DNA of 8,987 nucleotides from a virus (IMGVR_UViG_2617270951_000015:1-8987), one strand, 5' to 3'. Counted from the first letter of the stretch, positions 2,616-8,987 are shown. Notes: generated from the letters alone by a model not told the origin. A program made the numbers and translations.

Positions 2616-2948
2616 GTGAATTATGAGCAATCTGAATCCATGCATGACGTGTGGTGCCTGTTGTGCATTTTCCGCGTCTCTTTTTACTGGGCAGAAGCTG
2701 ACGATGCTGGCGGAAAGGTTTCGGTCAGTCTCACTGAGCAAATATCTCCTTTTCATCGCTGTATGCGCGGCACCAATCAGAAAAATCCCCGATGTGGCGC
2801 TCTTGCCGGCCCCCCCCGGAGAAAACGCATATTGCTCTGTTTACAAAAACCGTCCACATGCAGGGAATTCGCAATGTCCGGCGAAAATAGCATCGTAAAT
2901 GAAGCATGTAATCGCGCACGGGAAAAATATGGATTTCCAAAAATCTGA
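2616..2948 (+). pseudogene. Cysteine-cluster protein gene (YkgJ/UPF0153-like CxxCxxCC family by motif), disrupted by three frameshifts
   Basis: Protein-like segments alternate between the frames of ORFs 2623..2898 and 2616..2948: [16 protein letters not shown] | [49 protein letters not shown] | [12 protein letters not shown] | [32 protein letters not shown]. Joined they give a ~109-aa protein with CxxCGxCC and CxVYxxRPxxCRxF motifs. Frame switches sit at a T4 run (2668-2671), a C8 run (2810-2817) and an A5/ccgtcc stretch (2845-2856). Weak SD GGTGA before ATG 2623. Confidence 0.5.
2810..2817 (+). repeat. Homopolymeric C8 tract inside the Cys-cluster gene
   Basis: cccccccc at 2810-2817; the reading frame changes exactly across this tract. 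Confidence 0.9.
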
Positions 2949-3060
2949 ATATTCTCCGCCGTGCAAAAATGCGAACAACATCACTTCACTAATCAACCTG
3001 ACATGGCATACTTAGCACGCTAACTATGATAACAAACTAATACCCTAAAACTCATGGTTC

Positions 3061-3087
3061 CGGGACTGGTCGTGGTCCCGTTTTTTT
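3061..3087. terminator. Intrinsic terminator between the convergent Cys-cluster gene and the tfa-like gene (strong on plus, possibly bidirectional)
   Basis: Stem CGGGAC(UG)/(UG)GUCCCG (3061-3080) followed by T7 (3081-3087) on the plus strand; on the minus strand it is preceded by A7 and lies directly after the stop of the downstream gene (3090). Confidence 0.6.
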
Positions 3088-3089
3088 AT

Positions 3090-3698
3090 TCAGCCAGCAG
3101 GCCATCCAACAACGTAACTGCGGATCGCCTTCAGCTCTGTCAGCGCCTCAACCTCTGCTTTCATCTGCAACTGCCGTGTATTAATCTCCACCCCCTTCGC
3201 AAACATCGCCTGCTCTGTCGCATCCGACAGGGCTATGATGTCTGCCGCCGTCACCGGCACCACATTATTATCCCCGTCGGTCCAAGCAAAACCTTCCGGA
3301 AGACGGTTATTCTCTGCCATCAGGCGTGTCATGCTTATCCTGGACAACGTCTTCTTGCCGTAATCCCAGTTCCTTCCGTTGAATTCCATCATGTATTCCA
3401 TATTCTCCTGCACATCACGCCAGATATTAATCTCTTCCCTTTTCGCCGCTTTTGCCGCTTCCAGTACTGCTTCCGTGGCGACAAAGGCACTCACACTTCC
3501 GTACGTTCCTGCTGTCAGCCCAGACCACAATGCTTTTCCGTGTTCTGTATTATCCGTTTCCGTTGCAGTATACGGCAGCCATACCTGTTCCCCTTTTTCA
3601 TTCACCGCGTCTTCAAACTGCACCTCACAGTTTATCCCGCCATATTCGTTGCTGGCTGCATTTCGTACTGCAAGAATCTCTTTTCCCTTATCCACCAT
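3090..3698 (-). CDS. Putative tail fibre assembly/chaperone-like protein (family uncertain), 202 aa
   Basis: ORF placed immediately downstream of the tail fibre gene. Start chosen at ATG 3698 (MVDKGKEIL...) because a strong SD GAGGAGG sits 2 nt upstream and overlaps the stf stop (TAG 3707-3709). The ORF-track start at 3785 would overlap stf by 79 nt. Function is inferred from position only. Confidence 0.6.
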   Translation of the reverse strand: MVDKGKEILAVRNAASNEYGGINCEVQFEDAVNEKGEQVWLPYTATETDNTEHGKALWSGLTAGTYGSVSAFVATEAVLEAAKAAKREEINIWRDVQENMEYMMEFNGRNWDYGKKTLSRISMTRLMAENNRLPEGFAWTDGDNNVVPVTAADIIALSDATEQAMFAKGVEINTRQLQMKAEVEALTELKAIRSYVVGWPAG

Positions 3699-3706
3699 GA
3701 CCTCCT

Positions 3707-5035
3707 CTATGATATGCGCTGAAATAATCCTGCCTGTCTGATACCCGGAGATGATGTCCATAGCATCGGACCACATGCACGCCACGTGCCCGGTAAACGG
3801 GTCTCCCCCACATTACCGGAAGCAACCAGGGGAGTACCATCCGAAAGGCAACATGCAGACAGTGATGAGCCGGCAATGGCTGAGCCCGGTGCCATATCCC
3901 CCGAATAACTCGTCGCATAATATGCCGCAAGGACAAAAGAACCGACACCAAACAGTCCGCTGTCAGGACTTCCTGACGGTCCCTGAGGTCCTGCCGGACC
4001 TGCGGCTCCCGTATCTCCTTTTGGCCCCTGAGGCCCTGCCTGACCTGCGGCTCCCGTATCCCCTTTTGGCCCCTGTGGTCCTGCCGGGCCTGCAGCTCCC
4101 GTATCTCCCTTTGGCCCCTGAGGTCCTGCCGGACCTGCGGCTCCCGTATCTCCTTTTGGCCCCTGAGGTCCTGCCGGGCCTGCAGCTCCCGTATCTCCCT
4201 TTGGCCCCTGAGGTCCTGCCGGACCTGCGGCTCCCGTATCTCCTTTTGGCCCCTGAGGTCCTGCCGGGCCTGCAGCTCCCGTATCTCCCTTTGGCCCCTG
4301 AGGTCCTGCCGGACCTGCGGCTCCCGTATCTCCTTTTGGCCCCTGAGGCCCTGCCTGACCTGCGGCTCCCGTATCCCCTTTTGGCCCCTGAGGCCCTGCC
4401 GGGCCTGCGGCTCCCGTATCCCCTTTTGGCCCCTGAAGCCCTGCCGGGCCTGTATCCCCCTTGTCGCCCTTCGGTCCCTGTGGTCCGCCCGGATCGCCCT
4501 GCTCACCTTTCGGACCTGTATCCCCCTTATCGCCCTTGTCACCTTTATCCCCTTTCGGCCCCGGTGGCCCTGCCGGGCCTGTATCGCCCTTGTCCCCCTT
4601 CTGTCCCTGTGGACCAGTTGCTCCGGTGTCGCCTTTCAGTCCCTGTGGCCCCACGGCAGTTTCGGCTTTCTCAGCAGCTTCTCGCGCCCTGCGCACAGCC
4701 TCATCCGCCGCCGCTTCCAGCTTCTTCAGTGCATCAGGATAATACGCTGCATCCGTTTCACGGAGCAGAAAGGCATTCAGGGTGCCCGGTTCGTCGTCGG
4801 CCATGACATCAATCTCGCCGGCGCATGCCGGCTGACGACCTTCCACGCACAAGGTCACACGATAACGCCCCGGCTCAACCTGCATGCTGTAACTGCCCGT
4901 TTCGCCTGGCTGGTGCTCTGCCACCGTGGTGACTATCACCGTCTCACTCGTTCGCGTGGCTTTCAGCTCTATGGTGCAGTCCGGTACCGGTTTTCCTGTA
5001 CCATCCTTCAGCACACCTGAAATCTGTACTGACAT
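3707..5035 (-). CDS. stf: Side tail fibre protein with a long collagen-like (Gly-X-Y) stalk, 442 aa, apparently intact
   Basis: N-terminal ~90 aa ([17 protein letters not shown]...CTIELKA...) resemble the recalled N-terminus of lambda Stf; residues ~128-345 are uninterrupted Gly-X-Y triplets, including about ten [15 protein letters not shown] units; distinct ~95-aa non-collagen C-terminal domain. Purine-rich SD GGGGGGAA before the ATG. Confidence 0.85.
3982..4476. repeat. Tandem 45-bp repeat array (about 11 units) with a 90-bp higher-order unit repeated three times at 4072-4341
   Basis: Read directly: units begin at 3982, 4027, 4072, 4117, 4162, 4207, 4252, 4297, 4342, 4387 and 4432. Two unit variants (cctgccggacctgcggctcccgtatctccttttggcc and cctgccgggcctgcagctcccgtatctccctttggcc) alternate. 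Encodes the collagen-like stalk of stf on the minus strand. Confidence 0.9.
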
Positions 5036-5808
5036 ATTCCCCCCACAAAAAAGCCCACCAGAACCGGCGGGCTGTCATAACTCTGTGTTACCTGGCTATG
5101 GTAGTTCACCGTCATCTGCTGACCACCAAACTGCTCCGCATCCACCTGCATCCCCACAATGGCCGTGTTCGGGTAGCACTGTTTCACATCGATGATTTCG
5201 GTGTATGACGACCACAGCGTTCTGTTCTGCAGCTGGTCCGTGGTGCTGTCCGCCGTCTCCCTGACCATCCGGATGTTAAAGGGGCGGGGAGGCAGATTAT
5301 CCAGAATCACCGAGGCCAGGAACTGTGAGGTGGTCTTGCCGTTAATGGTGACATCCTTTTCTGTCACCCAGTTACCGTTACGCTGTAACTGAATCAGCAG
5401 ACGGACAGAGGACGGATTACGGTCACCCTTTGACGTGGTCTCCACCAGTGACTGCACCCCGAAGGTCACCCGCAGGCGGTCAATGTTCGCTGACGTAATG
5501 GTGCGTGTTACCGGTTTTGCCCTGGTCACTTCGACACCCAGTACAGTTTCAGAGCCGGAGGACTCAAAGCCTTCCGGTGGTGTCTGCTCCTGCTCCCCGG
5601 CACGCCAGACCGCGGTCACACCGTGTATCACGGGATTACCGTCCGTGTCCGTCAGCGGGGTTTTGTTCACCAGAATACTCTGCAGGCTTTTCACCGGGCC
5701 TTCTATCGGTCCCTCACCAATCGCATCAATCACGCTCATCATCTGCGTGGATTTGAGATTGTCTTTCGCCTCACGAGGCGTGTGTGCCTTACCGCCACCT
5801 TTTCCCAT
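5008..5808 (-). pseudogene. J: N-terminal fragment of a lambda J-like central tail fibre / host specificity protein
   Basis: First ~235 aa (MGKGGGKAHTPREAKDNLKSTQ...NIRM...QLQNRTLWSSYTEIIDVKQCYPNTA...NYH) follow the recalled N-terminus of lambda gpJ (~1130 aa). After NYH (about 5095-5100) the ORF runs out of frame through the stf upstream region and stops at 5008. SD GGGGAAGG before the ATG at 5808. Confidence 0.8.
5047..5072 (-). terminator. Terminator-like hairpin plus U6 immediately upstream of the stf start
   Basis: Minus strand: GCCCGCC-ggttct-GGTGGGC (7-bp stem, one G-U) followed by TTTTTT, then GTGGGGGGAAT-ATG(stf). Plus-strand coordinates: stem 5053-5072, A-run 5047-5052. Confidence 0.45.
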
Positions 5809-5921
5809 ACAGCCTTCCCCTGAATAAATTAACCGCCACTTGCCATTCCGTACAGAAGTCGGATATCCTTCGCCCGAAAAGCATGAAACACATTTCTGCC
5901 ATGCTAAAGAGAAACCCCGGT

Positions 5922-5957
5922 ATCAGCAGATACCGGGGTTTTCTTTCATGCCCACCG
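5922..5957. terminator. Strong GC-rich hairpin with T-rich flanks on both strands (candidate bidirectional terminator) in the I-J insert
   Basis: Perfect 12-13 bp stem AAACCCCGGTATC / GATACCGGGGTTT (5922-5934 / 5939-5951) with loop AGCA; followed by TTTTCTTTC on the plus strand and TTTCTCTTT on the minus strand. Confidence 0.45.
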
Positions 5958-6013
5958 ATAATCCTGTTGGTTAAAACCGGTAATGGCATAAAAATTCTGA
6001 ATATCTTCACATT

Positions 6014-6041
6014 TTCACAAACTGACCGTGGCGCGTATAAT
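6014..6041 (+). promoter_or_regulatory. Candidate sigma70 promoter inside the I-J intergenic insert
   Basis: -35 TTCACA (6014-6019), 16-bp spacer, perfect -10 TATAAT (6036-6041); no ORF follows on the plus strand. Confidence 0.45.
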
Positions 6042-6047
6042 TTCTCT

Positions 6048-6144
6048 GCGTTAATTTTTTTGTCGTGATATAAGAATAATTCCTTACACTTAATCTTCGT
6101 AACTCTCCCGCAGTTCCTGTCCGCGATCACTGCGGGATTTTTTT
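6048..6144 (+). ncRNA. Candidate small non-coding RNA (~95 nt) defined by the promoter at 6014-6041 and the terminator at 6106-6144
   Basis: Predicted TSS about 6048 and 3' end at the T7 tract. No ATG-initiated ORF in the interval (only a GTG followed by an immediate stop). Convergent with, and ending beside, the 3' end of the I-like gene. Purely a sequence-based prediction. Confidence 0.3.
6106..6144 (+). terminator. Intrinsic terminator (plus strand)
   Basis: 9-bp stem TCCCGCAGT / ACTGCGGGA (6106-6114 / 6129-6137) with a 14-nt loop, followed by T7 (6138-6144). Confidence 0.55.
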
Positions 6145-6151
6145 ATTCTTT

Positions 6152-6817
6152 TTACCCCTGCCGCCCGATAACCACGACCTTTCCGCCCCCGCCTTCATCA
6201 CGGGTGCTGATGTCCTGGGATATACGGCGGGAGCCAACCAGCATTTCCCCGTAAGGCACCGGCATCGGGTTCCCCTGGGCAATCATGTTATCCAGCGAGG
6301 AAAAGTACGTGTTCTGTCTGCCGTTATCCGTTGCGCGGTAATCCGGTGTTTTTGCCTTCGGGGCCAGCATCTGGGCCACACCGCCCAGTATCATGCTGGC
6401 ACCCAGTGAAAACAGCATCGTGGTGGCAGAAAAACCACCGGCACTCAGGGCTGTACCCCATAACGCCATCGAGCCTCCGGCCGTGAAGAAAGAGCCCACG
6501 ATGGCTGCCGCCCCCAACACAATCTGCAGTCCACCCTTTCCGGCCCCGGCCAGTCGCGGCACAATGTGGATGACCGTTCCCTCACCCAGCTGTTCGTGAA
6601 GGCGGGCGTACACCACCTCCGGTGCCGTGTCTTCACCGGCAATACGTATCTGGTACCAGCCTTCGTTCATCTGAAGGCGAAAGCCCGGCATCTGCATCGA
6701 CAGGGCGCGAATGGCTTCCGCTGCCGTGTTCACATACAGGCTGAGGCGGCGGCCAAATCGTTGTAAATCCCCGTGGTTGCCCACGGTTGAGCCAGAGATA
6801 ACAGCTTCCACCATCAT
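6152..6817 (-). pseudogene. I: Lambda gpI-like tail assembly protein, N-terminally truncated
   Basis: From GDLQRFGRR onward (minus-strand codons at about 6772 down to the stop at 6152) the protein follows recalled lambda gpI (…IRIAGEDT…IHIVPRLAGAGKGG…FSLGASMILGGVAQMLAPKAKTP…NTYFSSLDNM…PVPYGEM…VVVIGR). The first ~15 codons of the ORF (MMVEAVISGSTVGNH) are out-of-frame FII sequence; the gpI N-terminus is missing. Confidence 0.8.
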
Positions 6818-7103
6818 CCGGCGAAACCCGGTCTATCCAGAAGTTTTCCTCACCGATGGTCAGCGTGTCTCCACGCCGCAGTTGCCGCACATCATCAGTC
6901 CGGACAAACAGGGACGGGCTGGAGCCTTCAACGCGCACGCCCTGTCCGGCATAGCTGATATTTTCAGGGTCATCAAAAACACCACGTATTACTGCGCCGG
7001 ACTGCTCACCGGATGTCATGGTGGCTGACGTTCCCATGTACCCGCGTATCGTTTCATCGGCGCGGGCAATGGCAGCATCGAACAGGTTATCGAAATCAGC
7101 CAC
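6633..7103 (-). pseudogene. FII: Lambda gpFII-like head-tail joining protein, C-terminally replaced by out-of-frame I sequence
   Basis: Residues 1-~108 (MADFDNLFDAAIARADETIRGYMGTSAT...DRVSPDDGGSCYLWL-RG) follow recalled lambda gpFII (117 aa); the remaining ~48 residues read the I gene out of frame. GTG start at 7103 preceded by SD GGGAGG. Confidence 0.75.
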
Positions 7104-7114
7104 AGCGCCTCCCG

Positions 7115-7510
7115 TTATTGCATTCTGGCCAGGCCGCGCTCTGTCATTTCAGCTGCCACACCGGCAGAGACACGGAACGCCGTTCCCGGCAGCACAAATG
7201 CCACAGTGTCATCCCGCGTGGCGTGAAGTGCATCAGTATGCAGCGTCACCAGTGCCACGACCGTGACCAGAGCAGCCGTATCAATCACGGTATCCGGCTG
7301 CGCTGATACCACCTCATTTTCATGTCCGGTCAGCGCATTTTCCGGGCTGACAGATGTGTCCTGACCGGCAGCGTCATCCGTGTCATCAAGCTCCTCTTCC
7401 AGCTCTGCCACACGGAGCACCAGTTCTTCTTTCGTCCCCGTCAGGCTGACATCACGGTTCAGTTGCTCACCCAGCACCTGAAGACGGGCAATCAGTTCAT
7501 CTTTCGTCAT
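7115..7510 (-). CDS. FI: Lambda gpFI-like DNA-packaging/head assembly protein, apparently intact (132 aa)
   Basis: MTKDELIARLQVLGEQLNRDVSLTGTKEEL...AFRVSAGVAAEMTERGLARMQ closely follows recalled lambda gpFI. Start set at ATG 7510 (SD GGAGGAG 3 nt upstream) rather than the longer ORF start at 7549. Confidence 0.8.
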   Translation of the reverse strand: MTKDELIARLQVLGEQLNRDVSLTGTKEELVLRVAELEEELDDTDDAAGQDTSVSPENALTGHENEVVSAQPDTVIDTAALVTVVALVTLHTDALHATRDDTVAFVLPGTAFRVSAGVAAEMTERGLARMQ

Positions 7511-7531
7511 GGACTCCTCCACAGAGAGAAA

Positions 7532-7549
7532 ATGGCCCCGAAGGGCCAT
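7532..7549 (-). other. Perfect 7-bp hairpin with a UUCG tetraloop between the E stub and FI
   Basis: ATGGCCC-ttcg-GGGCCAT on the minus strand, followed by TTTTCTCTCTG and then the FI SD. Could be an attenuator or stabilising structure; function not established. Confidence 0.35.
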
Positions 7550-7551
7550 GA

Positions 7552-7830
7552 TTACGCCAGTTGTACGGACACGAACGCATCAGGATCAGCCAGCAGCATC
7601 AGCGGTGCTGACTGAATCATGGTGAACTCACGCGCCGGATCGCCGGTGGTCACCCAGTTTTTCGGGTAGCGGGCAGAGGCGTTAATACCTTCGCGCTGTG
7701 CGTCCGCATCCTGAATGCAGCCATAACGGAAGCCCTTCACCGTAGGCCATGCCGTTGGACTGTCCGGCAAGCACAACCACGTAGAACCAGTCCGGCTCAG
7801 ATGAAGGGCCGACCTGTGGATCTCCTTCAA
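7552..7830 (-). pseudogene. E: C-terminal fragment (about 58 aa) of a lambda gpE-like major capsid protein
   Basis: YGCIQDADAQREGINASARYPKNWVTTGDPAREFTMIQSAPLMLLADPDAFVSVQLA is the recalled C-terminus of lambda gpE (341 aa). Homology runs from about 7725 down to the stop at 7552; the upstream part of the ORF is out-of-frame nanS-like sequence. Confidence 0.8.
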
Positions 7831-7975
7831 TAGCCACCGCCTGCATCAGTGTGTACGGCGTAATGGCAACCGGTCCGCCATATGGCTGCCAGCCCTCTTT
7901 CAGTTTGTGTGTCAGCTTTTCCGCAAGGTCTGACGGCGACGCCGCCCTGACAACATCATAGTGTTTAAATGCCAT
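7682..7975 (-). pseudogene. nanS-p: N-terminal fragment (about 84 aa) of a prophage NanS-p-like sialate O-acetylesterase (DUF1737 region plus start of the SGNH/SASA domain)
   Basis: MAFKHYDVVRAASPSDLAEKLTHKLKEGWQPYGGPV...DWFYVVVLAGQSNGMAYGEGLPL carries the GQSN esterase motif and a recalled NanS-p type N-terminus. Homology stops at about 7726, where the E stub begins in another frame. SD GGAGG before the ATG at 7975. Confidence 0.65.
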
Positions 7976-8168
7976 GAATCCTCCCGGCCGGGATAATATT
8001 GTGAGTAAAATGAGGAGCGGGCTGAAGTCCGGAAGTTACAGGACAATGGCAGAAGAGAGACAACAGCCCGCAATACGAAAAAGGCCGCACTATTGCGCAG
8101 AGTGATTACTGTCGGATATTATTCGCCAGCTGAAATATTACTTCACGTTTTGTTGTTTATTCCTTGCC

Positions 8169-8196
8169 GCCCGCGTCTCCCTGCGCGGGCTTTTTT
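8169..8196 (+). terminator. Intrinsic terminator (plus strand) in the tRNA-nanS spacer
   Basis: Stem GCCCGCG / CGCGGGC (8169-8175 / 8184-8190) with an 8-nt loop, followed by T6 (8191-8196). A second perfect 8-bp hairpin AGCCCCTC-cgga-GAGGGGCT sits at 8208-8227. Confidence 0.55.
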
Positions 8197-8423
8197 GTCC
8201 ATAAGAAAGCCCCTCCGGAGAGGGGCTGGAGAGTGGCGCTATGTGCCATTGCATGGTGCCGGGTGCCTCCCGGTGAATTCAGTACCAGCACCTGAATCCG
8301 CGATTATCCCATATACCTACTCGCTGATTGCCCCTCCGCACAGGGGGATTCACCATGCCAGTTTCTTTTAACAAACTCCCCGCAAAACAGACAACTGTCA
8401 ACCGTCTGAATTGTGAGACATTT

Positions 8424-8449
8424 AAAAAAAAGGCCCGCAAAAGCGAGCC
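8424..8449 (-). terminator. Intrinsic terminator ending the minus-strand tRNA operon
   Basis: Minus strand: GGCTCGC-tttt-GCGGGCC (one mismatch in 7 bp) followed by T8 (plus-strand A-run 8424-8431), 15 nt after the 3' end of the last tRNA. Confidence 0.5.
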
Positions 8450-8463
8450 AGGGAAAATAAGTG

Positions 8464-8540
8464 TGGCGCGTTGTACTGGATTCGAACCAGTGACCGATTG
8501 CTTAGAAGGCAATTGCTCTGTCCGGCTGAGCTAACAACGC
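8464..8540 (-). tRNA. tRNA-Arg (anticodon UCU)
   Basis: 77-nt cloverleaf on the minus strand: GCGTTGT-TA-GCTC-AGCCGGACA-GAGC-A-ATTGC-CTTCTAA-GCAAT-CGGTC-ACTGG-TTCGAAT-CCAGT-ACAACGC-G-CCA; all stems perfect. Corresponds to one of argN/argO of Stx-type phages (which name is uncertain). Confidence 0.85.
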
Positions 8541-8553
8541 AGGATACAGATAA

Positions 8554-8630
8554 TGAACCGCCTTCGGGGACCCGAACTCCGCGCAACCAGCTTCGAAGGC
8601 TGGCGCTCTTTCCTGATGAGCTAATGGCGG
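8554..8630 (-). tRNA. tRNA-Arg-like (anticodon UCG), atypical and possibly degenerate
   Basis: CCGCCAT-TA-GCTC-ATCAGGAAA-GAGC-G-CCAGC-CTTCGAA-GCTGG-TTGCG-CGGAG-TTCGGGT-CCCCG-AAGGCGG-T-TCA. D and anticodon arms are perfect, but the acceptor stem has one A-A mismatch, the T-stem has one A-C mismatch, the T-loop has G where the near-invariant A58 is expected, and the 3' end reads TCA rather than CCA. Confidence 0.5.
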
Positions 8631-8637
8631 TATGTGA

Positions 8638-8713
8638 TGGTGGCCCTTGCTGGATTTGAACCAGCGACCTGGCGATTATGAGTCGCTCGCTCTCACCACT
8701 GAGCTAAAGGGCC
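8638..8713 (-). tRNA. ileZ: tRNA-Ile2/Met (anticodon CAU), ileX/ileZ-like
   Basis: 76 nt: GGCCCTT-TA-GCTC-AGTGGTGA-GAGC-G-AGCGA-CTCATAA-TCGCC-AGGTC-GCTGG-TTCAAAT-CCAGC-AAGGGCC-A-CCA. Close to the recalled E. coli ileX sequence, so probably the lysidine-modified AUA reader; the isotype cannot be proven from sequence alone. Confidence 0.8.
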
Positions 8714-8722
8714 GGGAGCAGA

Positions 8723-8751
8723 ATAATAATGGTGCGTAATTAATTCTGCAA
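8723..8751 (-). promoter_or_regulatory. Candidate sigma70 promoter for the tRNA operon
   Basis: Minus strand: -35 TTGCAG (8751-8746), 17-bp spacer, -10 TATTAT (8728-8723), about 9 nt before the 5' end of the first tRNA; lies directly after the methyltransferase stop (8763). Confidence 0.4.
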
Positions 8752-8762
8752 TCTCATCCGTT

Positions 8763-8987
8763 TCAAACGATTAAATCCTGAACTTCCCTGACTGTCTGCT
8801 CAAAACGTCCGGTCTCCAGTTCAACGCCAATCGCACGACGCCCGAGCGCCAGTGCCGCTTTTACCGTTGAACCTGAGCCCATAAAAAAATCTGCAACCAG
8901 GTCACCCGGACGACTGCTCGCGCTGATTATCTGCTGCAGCATTTCTGCCGGTTTTTCGCACGGATGTTTCCCGGGATAGAACTGCAC
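8763..8987 (-). CDS. DNA methyltransferase (beta-class N6A/N4C amino-MTase), C-terminal 74 aa only; gene continues beyond the right window edge
   Basis: Open to the window end. Motif IV-like HPCEKP precedes motif I-like FFMGSGST, the motif order of beta-class amino-methyltransferases. Whether the full gene is intact cannot be judged. Confidence 0.7.
   Translation of the reverse strand: MQFYPGKHPCEKPAEMLQQIISASSRPGDLVADFFMGSGSTVKAALALGRRAIGVELETGRFEQTVREVQDLIV

Follow-up and report, generated by a model that had tools for sequence, protein, structure and literature searches.

A toxin-free moron site in a lambdoid prophage remnant that probably carries a convergent pair of Hfq-dependent small RNA genes

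The DNA analyzed in this study is a stretch of 8,987 nucleotides from a virus (IMGVR_UViG_2617270951_000015:1-8987), hereafter called the window; all coordinates are counted from its first letter, and minus-strand features are mostly written in descending order. The plus strand of the window carries yfdC, argW, and an intS-type integrase gene, and the integrase is followed by a lambdoid tail gene block on the minus strand. At the right end, also on the minus strand, are the 3′ portion of a DNA methylase gene and a cluster of three phage tRNA genes (8713–8464). The tRNA with anticodon CAT (8713–8638) was called Met by ARAGORN, but is interpreted as an ileZ-type tRNA-Ile2, in line with the ileZ/tRNA-Ile annotation of relatives (Sakai Sp4/Sp5, Stx2a_1447); the other two are an argN-type tRNA-Arg (TCG; 8631–8555) and an argO-type tRNA-Arg (TCT; 8540–8464). 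A spacer of 488 bp separates this cluster from an open reading frame (ORF) that starts at 7975 on the minus strand. All of the features that a sequence-only reading had listed for this spacer were present where it placed them.

The ORF is preceded by a Shine–Dalgarno sequence, GGGAGG (7986–7981), and encodes a DUF1737 domain (E = 7e-17). Its product corresponds, with 100% identity, to residues 1–84 of an intact 619-aa prophage esterase of the nanS-p type, so the nanS-p stub named in the sequence-only reading is a 5′ esterase fragment (7986–7724) that is truncated after codon 84. At the break point (7724/7723), a deletion joins the esterase to the last ~55 codons of the capsid E gene, which is followed by FI, FII, and tail gene I. 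We therefore consider that the stub is real and that the prophage is a multiply deleted remnant. Because no complete Escherichia coli genome covers ≥ 80% of the whole window, the architecture of the remnant appears to be strain-specific, and a search for the 34-nt esterase/capsid deletion junction in a collection containing one genome per species gave no exact match.

In a consensus scan of positions 7400–8987, six terminator-like sites were detected, compared with 1.9 ± 1.5 in shuffled sequences, and five of the six were in the spacer. An intrinsic terminator follows the tRNA cluster at 8449–8424 on the minus strand (stem, 8449–8432; T8, 8431–8424), and its hairpin is annotated in phi24B as the “terminator upstream of the Stx genes.” On the plus strand, a terminator at 8169–8196 consists of an 8-bp GC-rich stem with a 6-nt loop (8169–8190) and T6. 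These two sites had been described as convergent terminators, and both proved to be real. A second perfect hairpin at 8208–8227, which had been placed behind the plus-strand terminator, is also present, but it acts as a terminator on the minus strand: its perfect 8-bp stem (8227–8208) and the following TTTCTTAT / UUUCUUAU form the terminator (8227–8200) of an STnc100-type small RNA (sRNA). This terminator faces the plus-strand terminator, and the 3′ ends of the two RNAs are only a few bases apart. A third terminator-like hairpin occurs on the minus strand in the 5′ leader of the esterase (8100–8076; stem, 8100–8085, then CCTTTTT, CCUUUUUCG). It overlaps a plus-strand TTGCGC hexamer and is kept in the spacers of Sp4, Sp5, Sp15, phi296, and EC3283, but not in that of Stx2a_1447.

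About 190 of the 488 bp of the spacer belong to a minus-strand gene of the STnc100 sRNA family (8387–8197), which is equivalent to EcOnc05 of Sakai Sp4. The match to Rfam model RF02076 covers the full length of the model (positions 1–206) and scored 139.2 bits against a gathering score of 47 (E = 3.2e-32). The sequence-only reading had missed this ~190-bp gene, and its description of the slot as “empty or residual” was not upheld. A member of the family was found at the same place and in the same orientation in nine of nine related loci, which included stx-negative, Stx2, and Stx1 phages or prophages. The consensus fold of six distinct homologues, a small sample, contains 44 base pairs, six of which show compensatory changes on both sides. 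The closing helix, GCAUGGUG/CACCAUGC, which starts at window position 8358, is invariant in the six homologues, and the terminator is conserved as well; the single-sequence fold had a z-score of −2.4 relative to shuffled sequences. Judging from its homologues, the mature minus-strand RNA probably extends from ~8358 to ~8199. The start near 8358 is based on PasD2, a homologue of 172 nt (as determined with RNA-seq and Northern blotting) that begins at GCAUGGUGAAUCC, which is homologous to window position 8358; the start of the Rfam model, 8387, is 29 nt upstream of this PasD-derived start.

The homologue alignment also contains a conserved block directly upstream of the minus-strand sRNA (8401–8365), which fits the pattern TTGTCT-18-TGtTAAAAG. 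The candidate promoter in this block, TTGTCT (8394–8389), 18 nt, and a TG-extended TAAAAG (8370–8365), is preferred because its bases are conserved and it predicts the PasD 5′ end. A perfect TTGACA is present further upstream (8401–8396); used as the −35 element, it would have a 17-nt spacer, a poor −10 element (GAGTTT), and a start near 8366, and this candidate was not preferred. STnc100 has been reported ~75 nt downstream of stx2B and detected in the outer-membrane vesicles of STEC (PMC12370729), and the qPCR primers used in that study match the window exactly. The STnc100 region overlaps EcOnc27/sRNA103 and HUS-associated variants, and STnc100/EcOnc27 variants downstream of stx2B have recently been linked to HUS risk (PMC12711010). 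A preprint relates the STnc100 family to PasD, directly upstream of an esterase gene (10.64898/2026.05.13.724894).

On the plus strand, positions 8016–8196 constitute the convergent sRNA, which is of the EcOnc08/EcOnc21/EcOnc42 type. Including the putative seed and the terminator, 179 of 181 positions are identical to a 182-nt RIL-seq candidate of EPEC E2348/69, “E2348C_1409.E2348C_1408.IGR” (coordinates from table S6 of PMC8550237), which is located in prophage PP6 and was flagged as an EcOnc08/21/42 homologue (PMC8550237). The reported partners of the EPEC candidate include the 5′ UTRs of cfa (767 chimeras) and dppA (197 chimeras) and tir, and these partners share the motif GGCA[A/G]GG (PMC8550237). 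The putative seed CCUUGCC (8162–8168), directly 5′ of the terminator stem, is complementary to this motif. The plus-strand RNA had no significant fold (z = −1.0) and no Rfam family match in the scanned region (7400–8987). When its pairing with the EPEC cfa and dppA leaders was calculated with RNAduplex, the energies (−20.3 and −19.5 kcal/mol) did not improve on those obtained with shuffled seeds (fractions of 0.25 and 0.19), so the pairing with cfa and dppA rests on the published RIL-seq data. The exact complements that stand out are the 7-nt GGCAAGG and the 10-nt AAACAACAAA, but on dppA the published RIL-seq reads span a region immediately upstream of the 10-mer, so pairing through it is speculative.

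Candidate promoters for the long plus-strand RNA are found at 7969–8011 (ATGCCA-17-GATAAT at 7969–7997 and TAAAAT at 8006–8011), and the 5′ end of the EPEC RNA is the equivalent of 8016. An internal promoter-like site is also present, in which TTGCGC (8093–8098) and TATTAT (8117–8122) are separated by 18 nt. The sequence-only reading called this site weak and derived from it a transcript of ~70 nt ending at 8196. The term “weak” is fair, because TTGCGC matches TTGACA at only three of six positions, which is also why the pair was absent from the consensus scan. The 3′ end at 8196 is backed by published copies that are ~99% identical, whereas the documented length is ~180–270 nt. A 68-nt short form is still possible as a sequence-based prediction, because the site lies at the position of the AsxR promoter (TTGCGC-18-TAAAAT), and one Hfq-CRAC peak of EcOnc08 (8122–8194) fits such a form. 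The only published Northern probe overlies this promoter and detects the long RNA.

All of the RNA evidence comes from ~99%-identical copies in other strains, in particular prophage Sp4 of E. coli O157:H7 Sakai, with which window positions 7900–8480 share 99.1% identity (582 bp). In Sakai, convergent sRNA pairs between a moron coding sequence downstream of PR′ and a conserved ORF have been described in Sp3, Sp4, Sp5, Sp9, Sp10, Sp11, Sp15, and Sp17 (Tree et al. 2014, PMC4104026). The entries for Sp4 are EcOnc05 (~222 nt) and EcOnc08/EcOnc21 (~271 nt), which are Hfq-bound and were sized with Northern blotting (PMC4104026). The EcOnc05 probe matches window positions 8295–8329 with no mismatch and therefore detects the minus-strand RNA, and the EcOnc05 Hfq-CRAC peak maps to 8326–8218 on the same strand. 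The EcOnc08/21/42 probe matches 8089–8123 with one mismatch and therefore detects the plus-strand RNA, for which Hfq-CRAC peaks map to 8031–8116 and 8122–8194. Both Sakai Northern sizes exceed the ~160–190 nt predicted for the RNAs of the window. The coordinates of Tree et al. are offset by ~140 nt from NC_002695.2 at Sp5, but at Sp4 an offset of 0 is supported by the probe positions. Sp4 has the same gene order (ileZ-argN-argO), a 489-bp spacer, and the esterase homologue ECs_1088. The two sequences differ at five bases; among these differences, the window has TTGACA where Sakai has TTGACT, and the plus-strand terminator ends in T6 in the window but in T7 in Sp4. A further difference from Sp4 is that the window contains a truncated esterase gene and a prophage remnant.

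The spacer is also the Shiga-toxin slot of Stx2a phages. In Stx2a_1447, the window is matched by two blocks, 8423–8987 (tRNAs and methylase, 92% identity) and, downstream of stx2B, 8201–8420; the 1,332 bp between these blocks comprise the stx2 leader, stx2A, and stx2B. The same two break points were found in Sakai Sp5, phi24B, and the Stx2_EC3283 phage, and the flanks of the slot are collinear with the stx flanks in all four. Across Stx2a phages, the downstream match begins at 7900, 7976, or 8201 and extends to 8420; in EC3283 it covers the rest of the spacer (7900–8420) with 86% identity, and about two dozen Stx2a phage records share the 1–445 match of EC3283. The alignments thus place the toxin insertion point at a clean junction, 8420–8426, where Stx2a phages carry 1.3 kb with the stx2 promoter region, stx2A, and stx2B. 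In the window, this point is unoccupied, and the T-run of the tRNA terminator is simply joined to TTAAATG, a heptamer with which the conserved block downstream of this point also starts in Sp15 and the stx-negative phage phi296. Sp15, a Stx1 prophage, has a region downstream of stx1B that is 90% identical to window positions 7920–8358, but no tRNAs between Q and stx1. The claim that the tRNA-Ile2/Arg/Arg and nanS-p neighborhood flanks stx therefore stands for Stx2a phages but not for Sp15, and adjacency between the tRNAs and the toxin is a trait of Stx2 phages. The absence of the toxin, which had been asserted from the sequence, was also confirmed: tblastn of Stx2A/B against the window gave best E values of 0.29–0.57 and no hit in the spacer, and blastn of the 1,332-bp stx2 cassette (word size 7) yielded only chance matches of 11–19 nt, none of them in the spacer, whereas the positive controls were recovered in L003 and L005 (EC3283).

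Based on these results, we consider it highly probable that the spacer represents, in its toxin-free form, the moron site found downstream of PR′ in the late region of lambdoid (Stx-type) prophages, and that it carries a convergent pair of Hfq-dependent sRNAs. The methylase, the tRNAs, the spacer, and the DUF1737 esterase start are all present in the window, and in L004, an intact stx-negative prophage with the same spacer, these elements occur in the order Q, methylase, tRNAs, spacer, esterase, and holin, that is, with Q upstream and the holin downstream. At ≥ 80% coverage, the toxin-free spacer was found in 980 of 5,426 complete E. coli genomes, and many of these copies are ≥ 99% identical. 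The sequence comparisons establish the layout, the family membership, the toxin junction, and the close match to RNAs that have been detected by experiment; Hfq binding and the presence of discrete RNAs in uninduced cells are taken from the literature on ~99%-identical copies (PMC4104026), as are the RIL-seq partners of the plus-strand RNA (PMC8550237). Both the site and the two sRNA genes have been described before in pathogenic E. coli; the finding is thus genuine but unremarkable, and it amounts to the correct recognition of a known site rather than new biology. For annotation, the gap merits two non-coding RNA genes instead of a blank or a “hypothetical protein.” The spacer also marks a toxin-free relative of Stx phages, in which Shiga toxin genes are carried at the equivalent locus, and the exact toxin junction is now mapped.

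Several known loci resemble this arrangement. In the Stx2 phages (Sp5, 933W-type, and phi24B), the EcOnc27 (sRNA103)/AsxR dyad occupies the same slot downstream of stx2B. As in the window, a late-strand STnc100 RNA (207.7 bits there) faces a short sRNA, and an esterase gene follows downstream; unlike in the window, stx2AB is located upstream, and the STnc100 copies are only ~73% identical. The antisense partner in the Stx2 phages is the 53-nt anti-sRNA AsxR (RF02703), which abuts the 3′ end of STnc100 in Sp5 and phi24B and has a transcribed body with no relation to that of the plus-strand RNA in the window. Both plus-strand RNAs are antisense to the late strand and have similar promoter-like elements (TTGCGC-18-TATTAT in the window, TTGCGC-18-TAAAAT for AsxR). 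The two loci have in common the block GCGC(A/T)(G/A)TTGCGCAG together with the whole sequence that extends from it to the start of the esterase gene, and diverge between the −10 element and the terminator. Because the bodies differ and the upstream block is common, the window RNA and AsxR are alternative cassettes behind a shared −35 region. Membership of the AsxR/AgvB/EcOnc03 family was defined by a covariance model or by the conserved ~42-nt 3′ region (GUAUCUCAUGC.AUUGCCCGAACCCA.UCGGGC). The AsxR and AgvB models (RF02703 and RF02702) gave no match at E ≤ 1 in 7400–8987, and the EcOnc01/02/03 probes had no site with ≤ 4 mismatches in the window; as a positive control, AsxR was found at 88 bits in phi24B and Sp5. 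The plus-strand RNA was therefore rejected as a member of this family, with which it has only the promoter position in common.

The AgvB/EcOnc06 dyad of Sp10 and Sp17, both stx-negative lambdoid prophages, is of the same kind. A single mismatch separates the EcOnc06 probe from the STnc100 copy of the window, but the antisense partner in Sp10 and Sp17 is the anti-GcvB sponge AgvB, whereas the window has the longer EcOnc08-type RNA. The EPEC candidate in PP6 is likewise upstream of the esterase and has the same terminator and CCUUGCC seed as the window (PMC8550237), but the STnc100 copy facing it is split by ISEc13, whereas that of the window is intact. PasD1 and PasD2 of EPEC and the STnc100 of Salmonella belong to the same family or superfamily, with the same closing helix and an internal CCCCC/GGGGG hairpin, and, like the window copy, they lie directly upstream of a sialate esterase gene. 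The window sequence is too diverged from PasD for BLAST, and the PasD seed UGUGAG, which precedes the PasD terminator, is absent from the window RNA, so the PasD targets are not transferable to it. For the sRNAs resident at these sites, a tuning of host metabolism and virulence is known or suspected: AsxR targets FnrS and hence affects the heme oxygenase gene chuS, AgvB acts on GcvB, and sRNA103/EcOnc27 acts on fimZ and espA. The reason for the dyad arrangement was described in a review as still unclear (PMC7873438).

A mechanism consistent with these observations can be proposed. In the late direction (minus), the tRNA cluster ends at the intrinsic terminator 8449–8424, and the position that stx2AB takes up in Stx2 phages (8420–8426) is unoccupied. 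The conserved promoter would then drive the EcOnc05-type STnc100 sRNA from ~8358 or ~8387 to ~8199, ending at the hairpin 8227–8208, and the facing EcOnc08/21/42-type sRNA would start in the esterase leader (~8004 or ~8016) and end at 8196 with the terminator 8169–8196. In a lysogen, both RNAs may arise from their own sigma-70 promoters, associate with Hfq, and regulate host and virulence mRNAs in trans; by analogy with the EPEC RIL-seq data, the plus-strand RNA would use its CCUUGCC seed on cfa, dppA, and tir. The back-to-back terminators, together with the third one at 8100–8085, may keep sRNA transcription out of the late genes, and once the prophage is induced, RNA polymerase that has started at PR′ and been modified by Q would transcribe past every one of these terminators. 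Since deletions have reduced the prophage of the window to a remnant, the lysogen-type role is the only one still applicable here.

Other explanations of the spacer were weighed against this model. The slot might be essentially empty or residual, with terminators and at most a ~70-nt plus-strand transcript from TTGCGC/TATTAT. The terminators and promoter-like hexamers are indeed present, the hexamers coincide in position with the AsxR promoter, and a 68-nt RNA would fit the EcOnc08 Hfq-CRAC peak at 8122–8194; however, a full-length STnc100-family gene occupies 8387–8197, the EcOnc08/21/42 probe that lies over the proposed promoter detects an RNA of ~271 nt, and the EPEC homologue is 182 nt long and starts at the equivalent of 8016, so that we regard an empty slot as quite improbable. 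It is also unlikely that the spacer is the scar of stx loss from a former Stx phage instead of a site that was never occupied. In favor of a scar, Stx2a phages with an 86%-identical spacer carry stx2AB at exactly the same junction, and the loss of stx from prophages has been proposed (preprint 10.64898/2026.05.13.724894). Nevertheless, no stx-derived protein or DNA similarity was detected in the window, the junction is seamless, with the T-run abutting the TTAAATG block that also begins the Stx1 and stx-negative downstream blocks, and the identical toxin-free arrangement occurs in 980 complete genomes of many serotypes. Whichever history applies, the functional interpretation is unchanged.

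We consider it very unlikely that the role of the structured elements is confined to cis control of the late transcript, in which a terminator cluster or leader would gate the esterase and lysis genes until Q antitermination. Three minus-strand terminator-like hairpins do follow one another on the way from the tRNAs to the start of the esterase gene, inside a Q-dependent late operon, but in uninduced cultures 99%-identical copies gave rise to discrete RNAs that were bound to Hfq (PMC4104026), and RIL-seq chimeras with many trans targets have been reported for two homologues, PasD and the plus-strand RNA of EPEC (PMC8550237). A conserved promoter block directly upstream and the retention of the element in a remnant that lacks the late genes also argue against a purely cis-acting element, and cis and trans roles are not mutually exclusive. 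Some annotation pipelines place small proteins in the spacer: PGAP reports a partial “hypothetical protein” pseudogene under it, PHANOTATE calls three small ORFs in phage phi296, and the window has a 92-codon TTG ORF at 8093–8371. That the spacer encodes such proteins is extremely improbable, given that all of the candidate ORFs start with TTG or GTG, that single-base indels change their length from 67 to 110 codons, and that they lie antisense to a structured RNA in which base changes are compensatory. No spacer reading frame was conserved across seven homologues; for this reason small-protein coding was rejected, and the sequence-only reading was right that the spacer has no credible ORF.

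Returning to the convergent sRNA pair, a more speculative extension concerns the plus-strand partner. The plus-strand slot might be a cassette-exchange site with its breakpoint in the shared −35 region, whose alleles push the same host circuit in opposite directions, the EcOnc08-type RNA being GcvB-like and domesticated; we put this forward tentatively and think it rather doubtful. AgvB mimics the dppA target and sponges GcvB, whereas the EcOnc08-type RNA would, if the idea were true, act like GcvB and not against it, and the intact survival of the RNA in a remnant without lysis or packaging genes would represent domestication as a host regulator. The G/U-rich stretch UUUGUUGUUU (8151–8160) of the plus-strand RNA has 10 nt of perfect complementarity to the C/A-rich region of the dppA leader where GcvB binds.

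In the window, the nanS-p-type esterase gene ends after codon 84 and is fused to capsid gene E (positions 7552–7975). The junction lies at 7723/7724, where the partner is the final ∼55 codons of the gene for the lambda-type major capsid protein E. The lysis, terminase, and portal genes are missing, as are most of the head genes and the part of the esterase gene beyond codon 84. The 34-nt sequence of this junction had no exact match in a collection containing one genome per species. The ORF for FII, the head-tail attachment protein (∼6633–7103), overlaps the ORF for tail assembly protein I (6152–6817), and this running of one ORF into the other suggests a second internal deletion, with loss of the genes for the tail shaft (Z through K).

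At the other end of the window, an intS-type integrase region adjacent to argW (1–2402) adjoins a lambdoid late region (2623–6775) at its distal end, where the tail fibre, lom, and J genes lie; the orientation of the late region is opposite to that of the integrase. No complete E. coli genome was found to cover ≥ 80% of the window, and we therefore regard it as an unusual mosaic or a rearranged remnant at argW.

In enteropathogenic E. coli (EPEC) E2348/69, the IS4-like element ISEc13 is located inside the STnc100 copy, the minus-strand sRNA of the convergent pair, in prophage PP6 (601–2150 of locus L010). The insertion site is equivalent to window positions 8336–8343, with an apparent 8-bp target duplication, and the plus-strand sRNA facing the split gene is intact and expressed. 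In PP6, one sRNA of the pair, the STnc100 copy, is naturally knocked out.

In the plus-strand sRNA, UUUGUUGUUU (8151–8160) is perfectly complementary over 10 nt to the dppA leader sequence AAACAACAAA, which is rich in C and A and which we take to be the GcvB target region. The dppA transcript was among the RIL-seq partners of the EPEC homologue of this sRNA; the energy of the sRNA/dppA duplex was no better than that of shuffled controls.

A third terminator-like hairpin on the minus strand, CUGCGCAAUAGUGCGG followed by CCUUUUUCG (8076–8100), is situated in the esterase leader and shares bases with the plus-strand −35 element TTGCGC. It is retained in the spacers of Sp4, Sp5, Sp15, phi296, and EC3283, but not in that of Stx2a_1447, and may be a dual-use sequence, serving as a terminator on one strand and as a promoter element on the opposite strand.

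Annotation pipelines used for RefSeq genomes and for phage records call ORFs or pseudogenes, labelled “hypothetical protein”, antisense over the STnc100 gene, as in an intact stx-negative prophage relative (L004, 7268–7393) and a phage record (L001, 3124–3554), and neither sRNA is annotated in these entries. When compared with NC_002695.2, the current RefSeq sequence of Sakai, the sRNA coordinates in Table S2 of Tree et al. (2014) were offset by ∼140 nt at Sp5 and by 0 nt at Sp4, and reuse of this table requires locus-by-locus recalibration.
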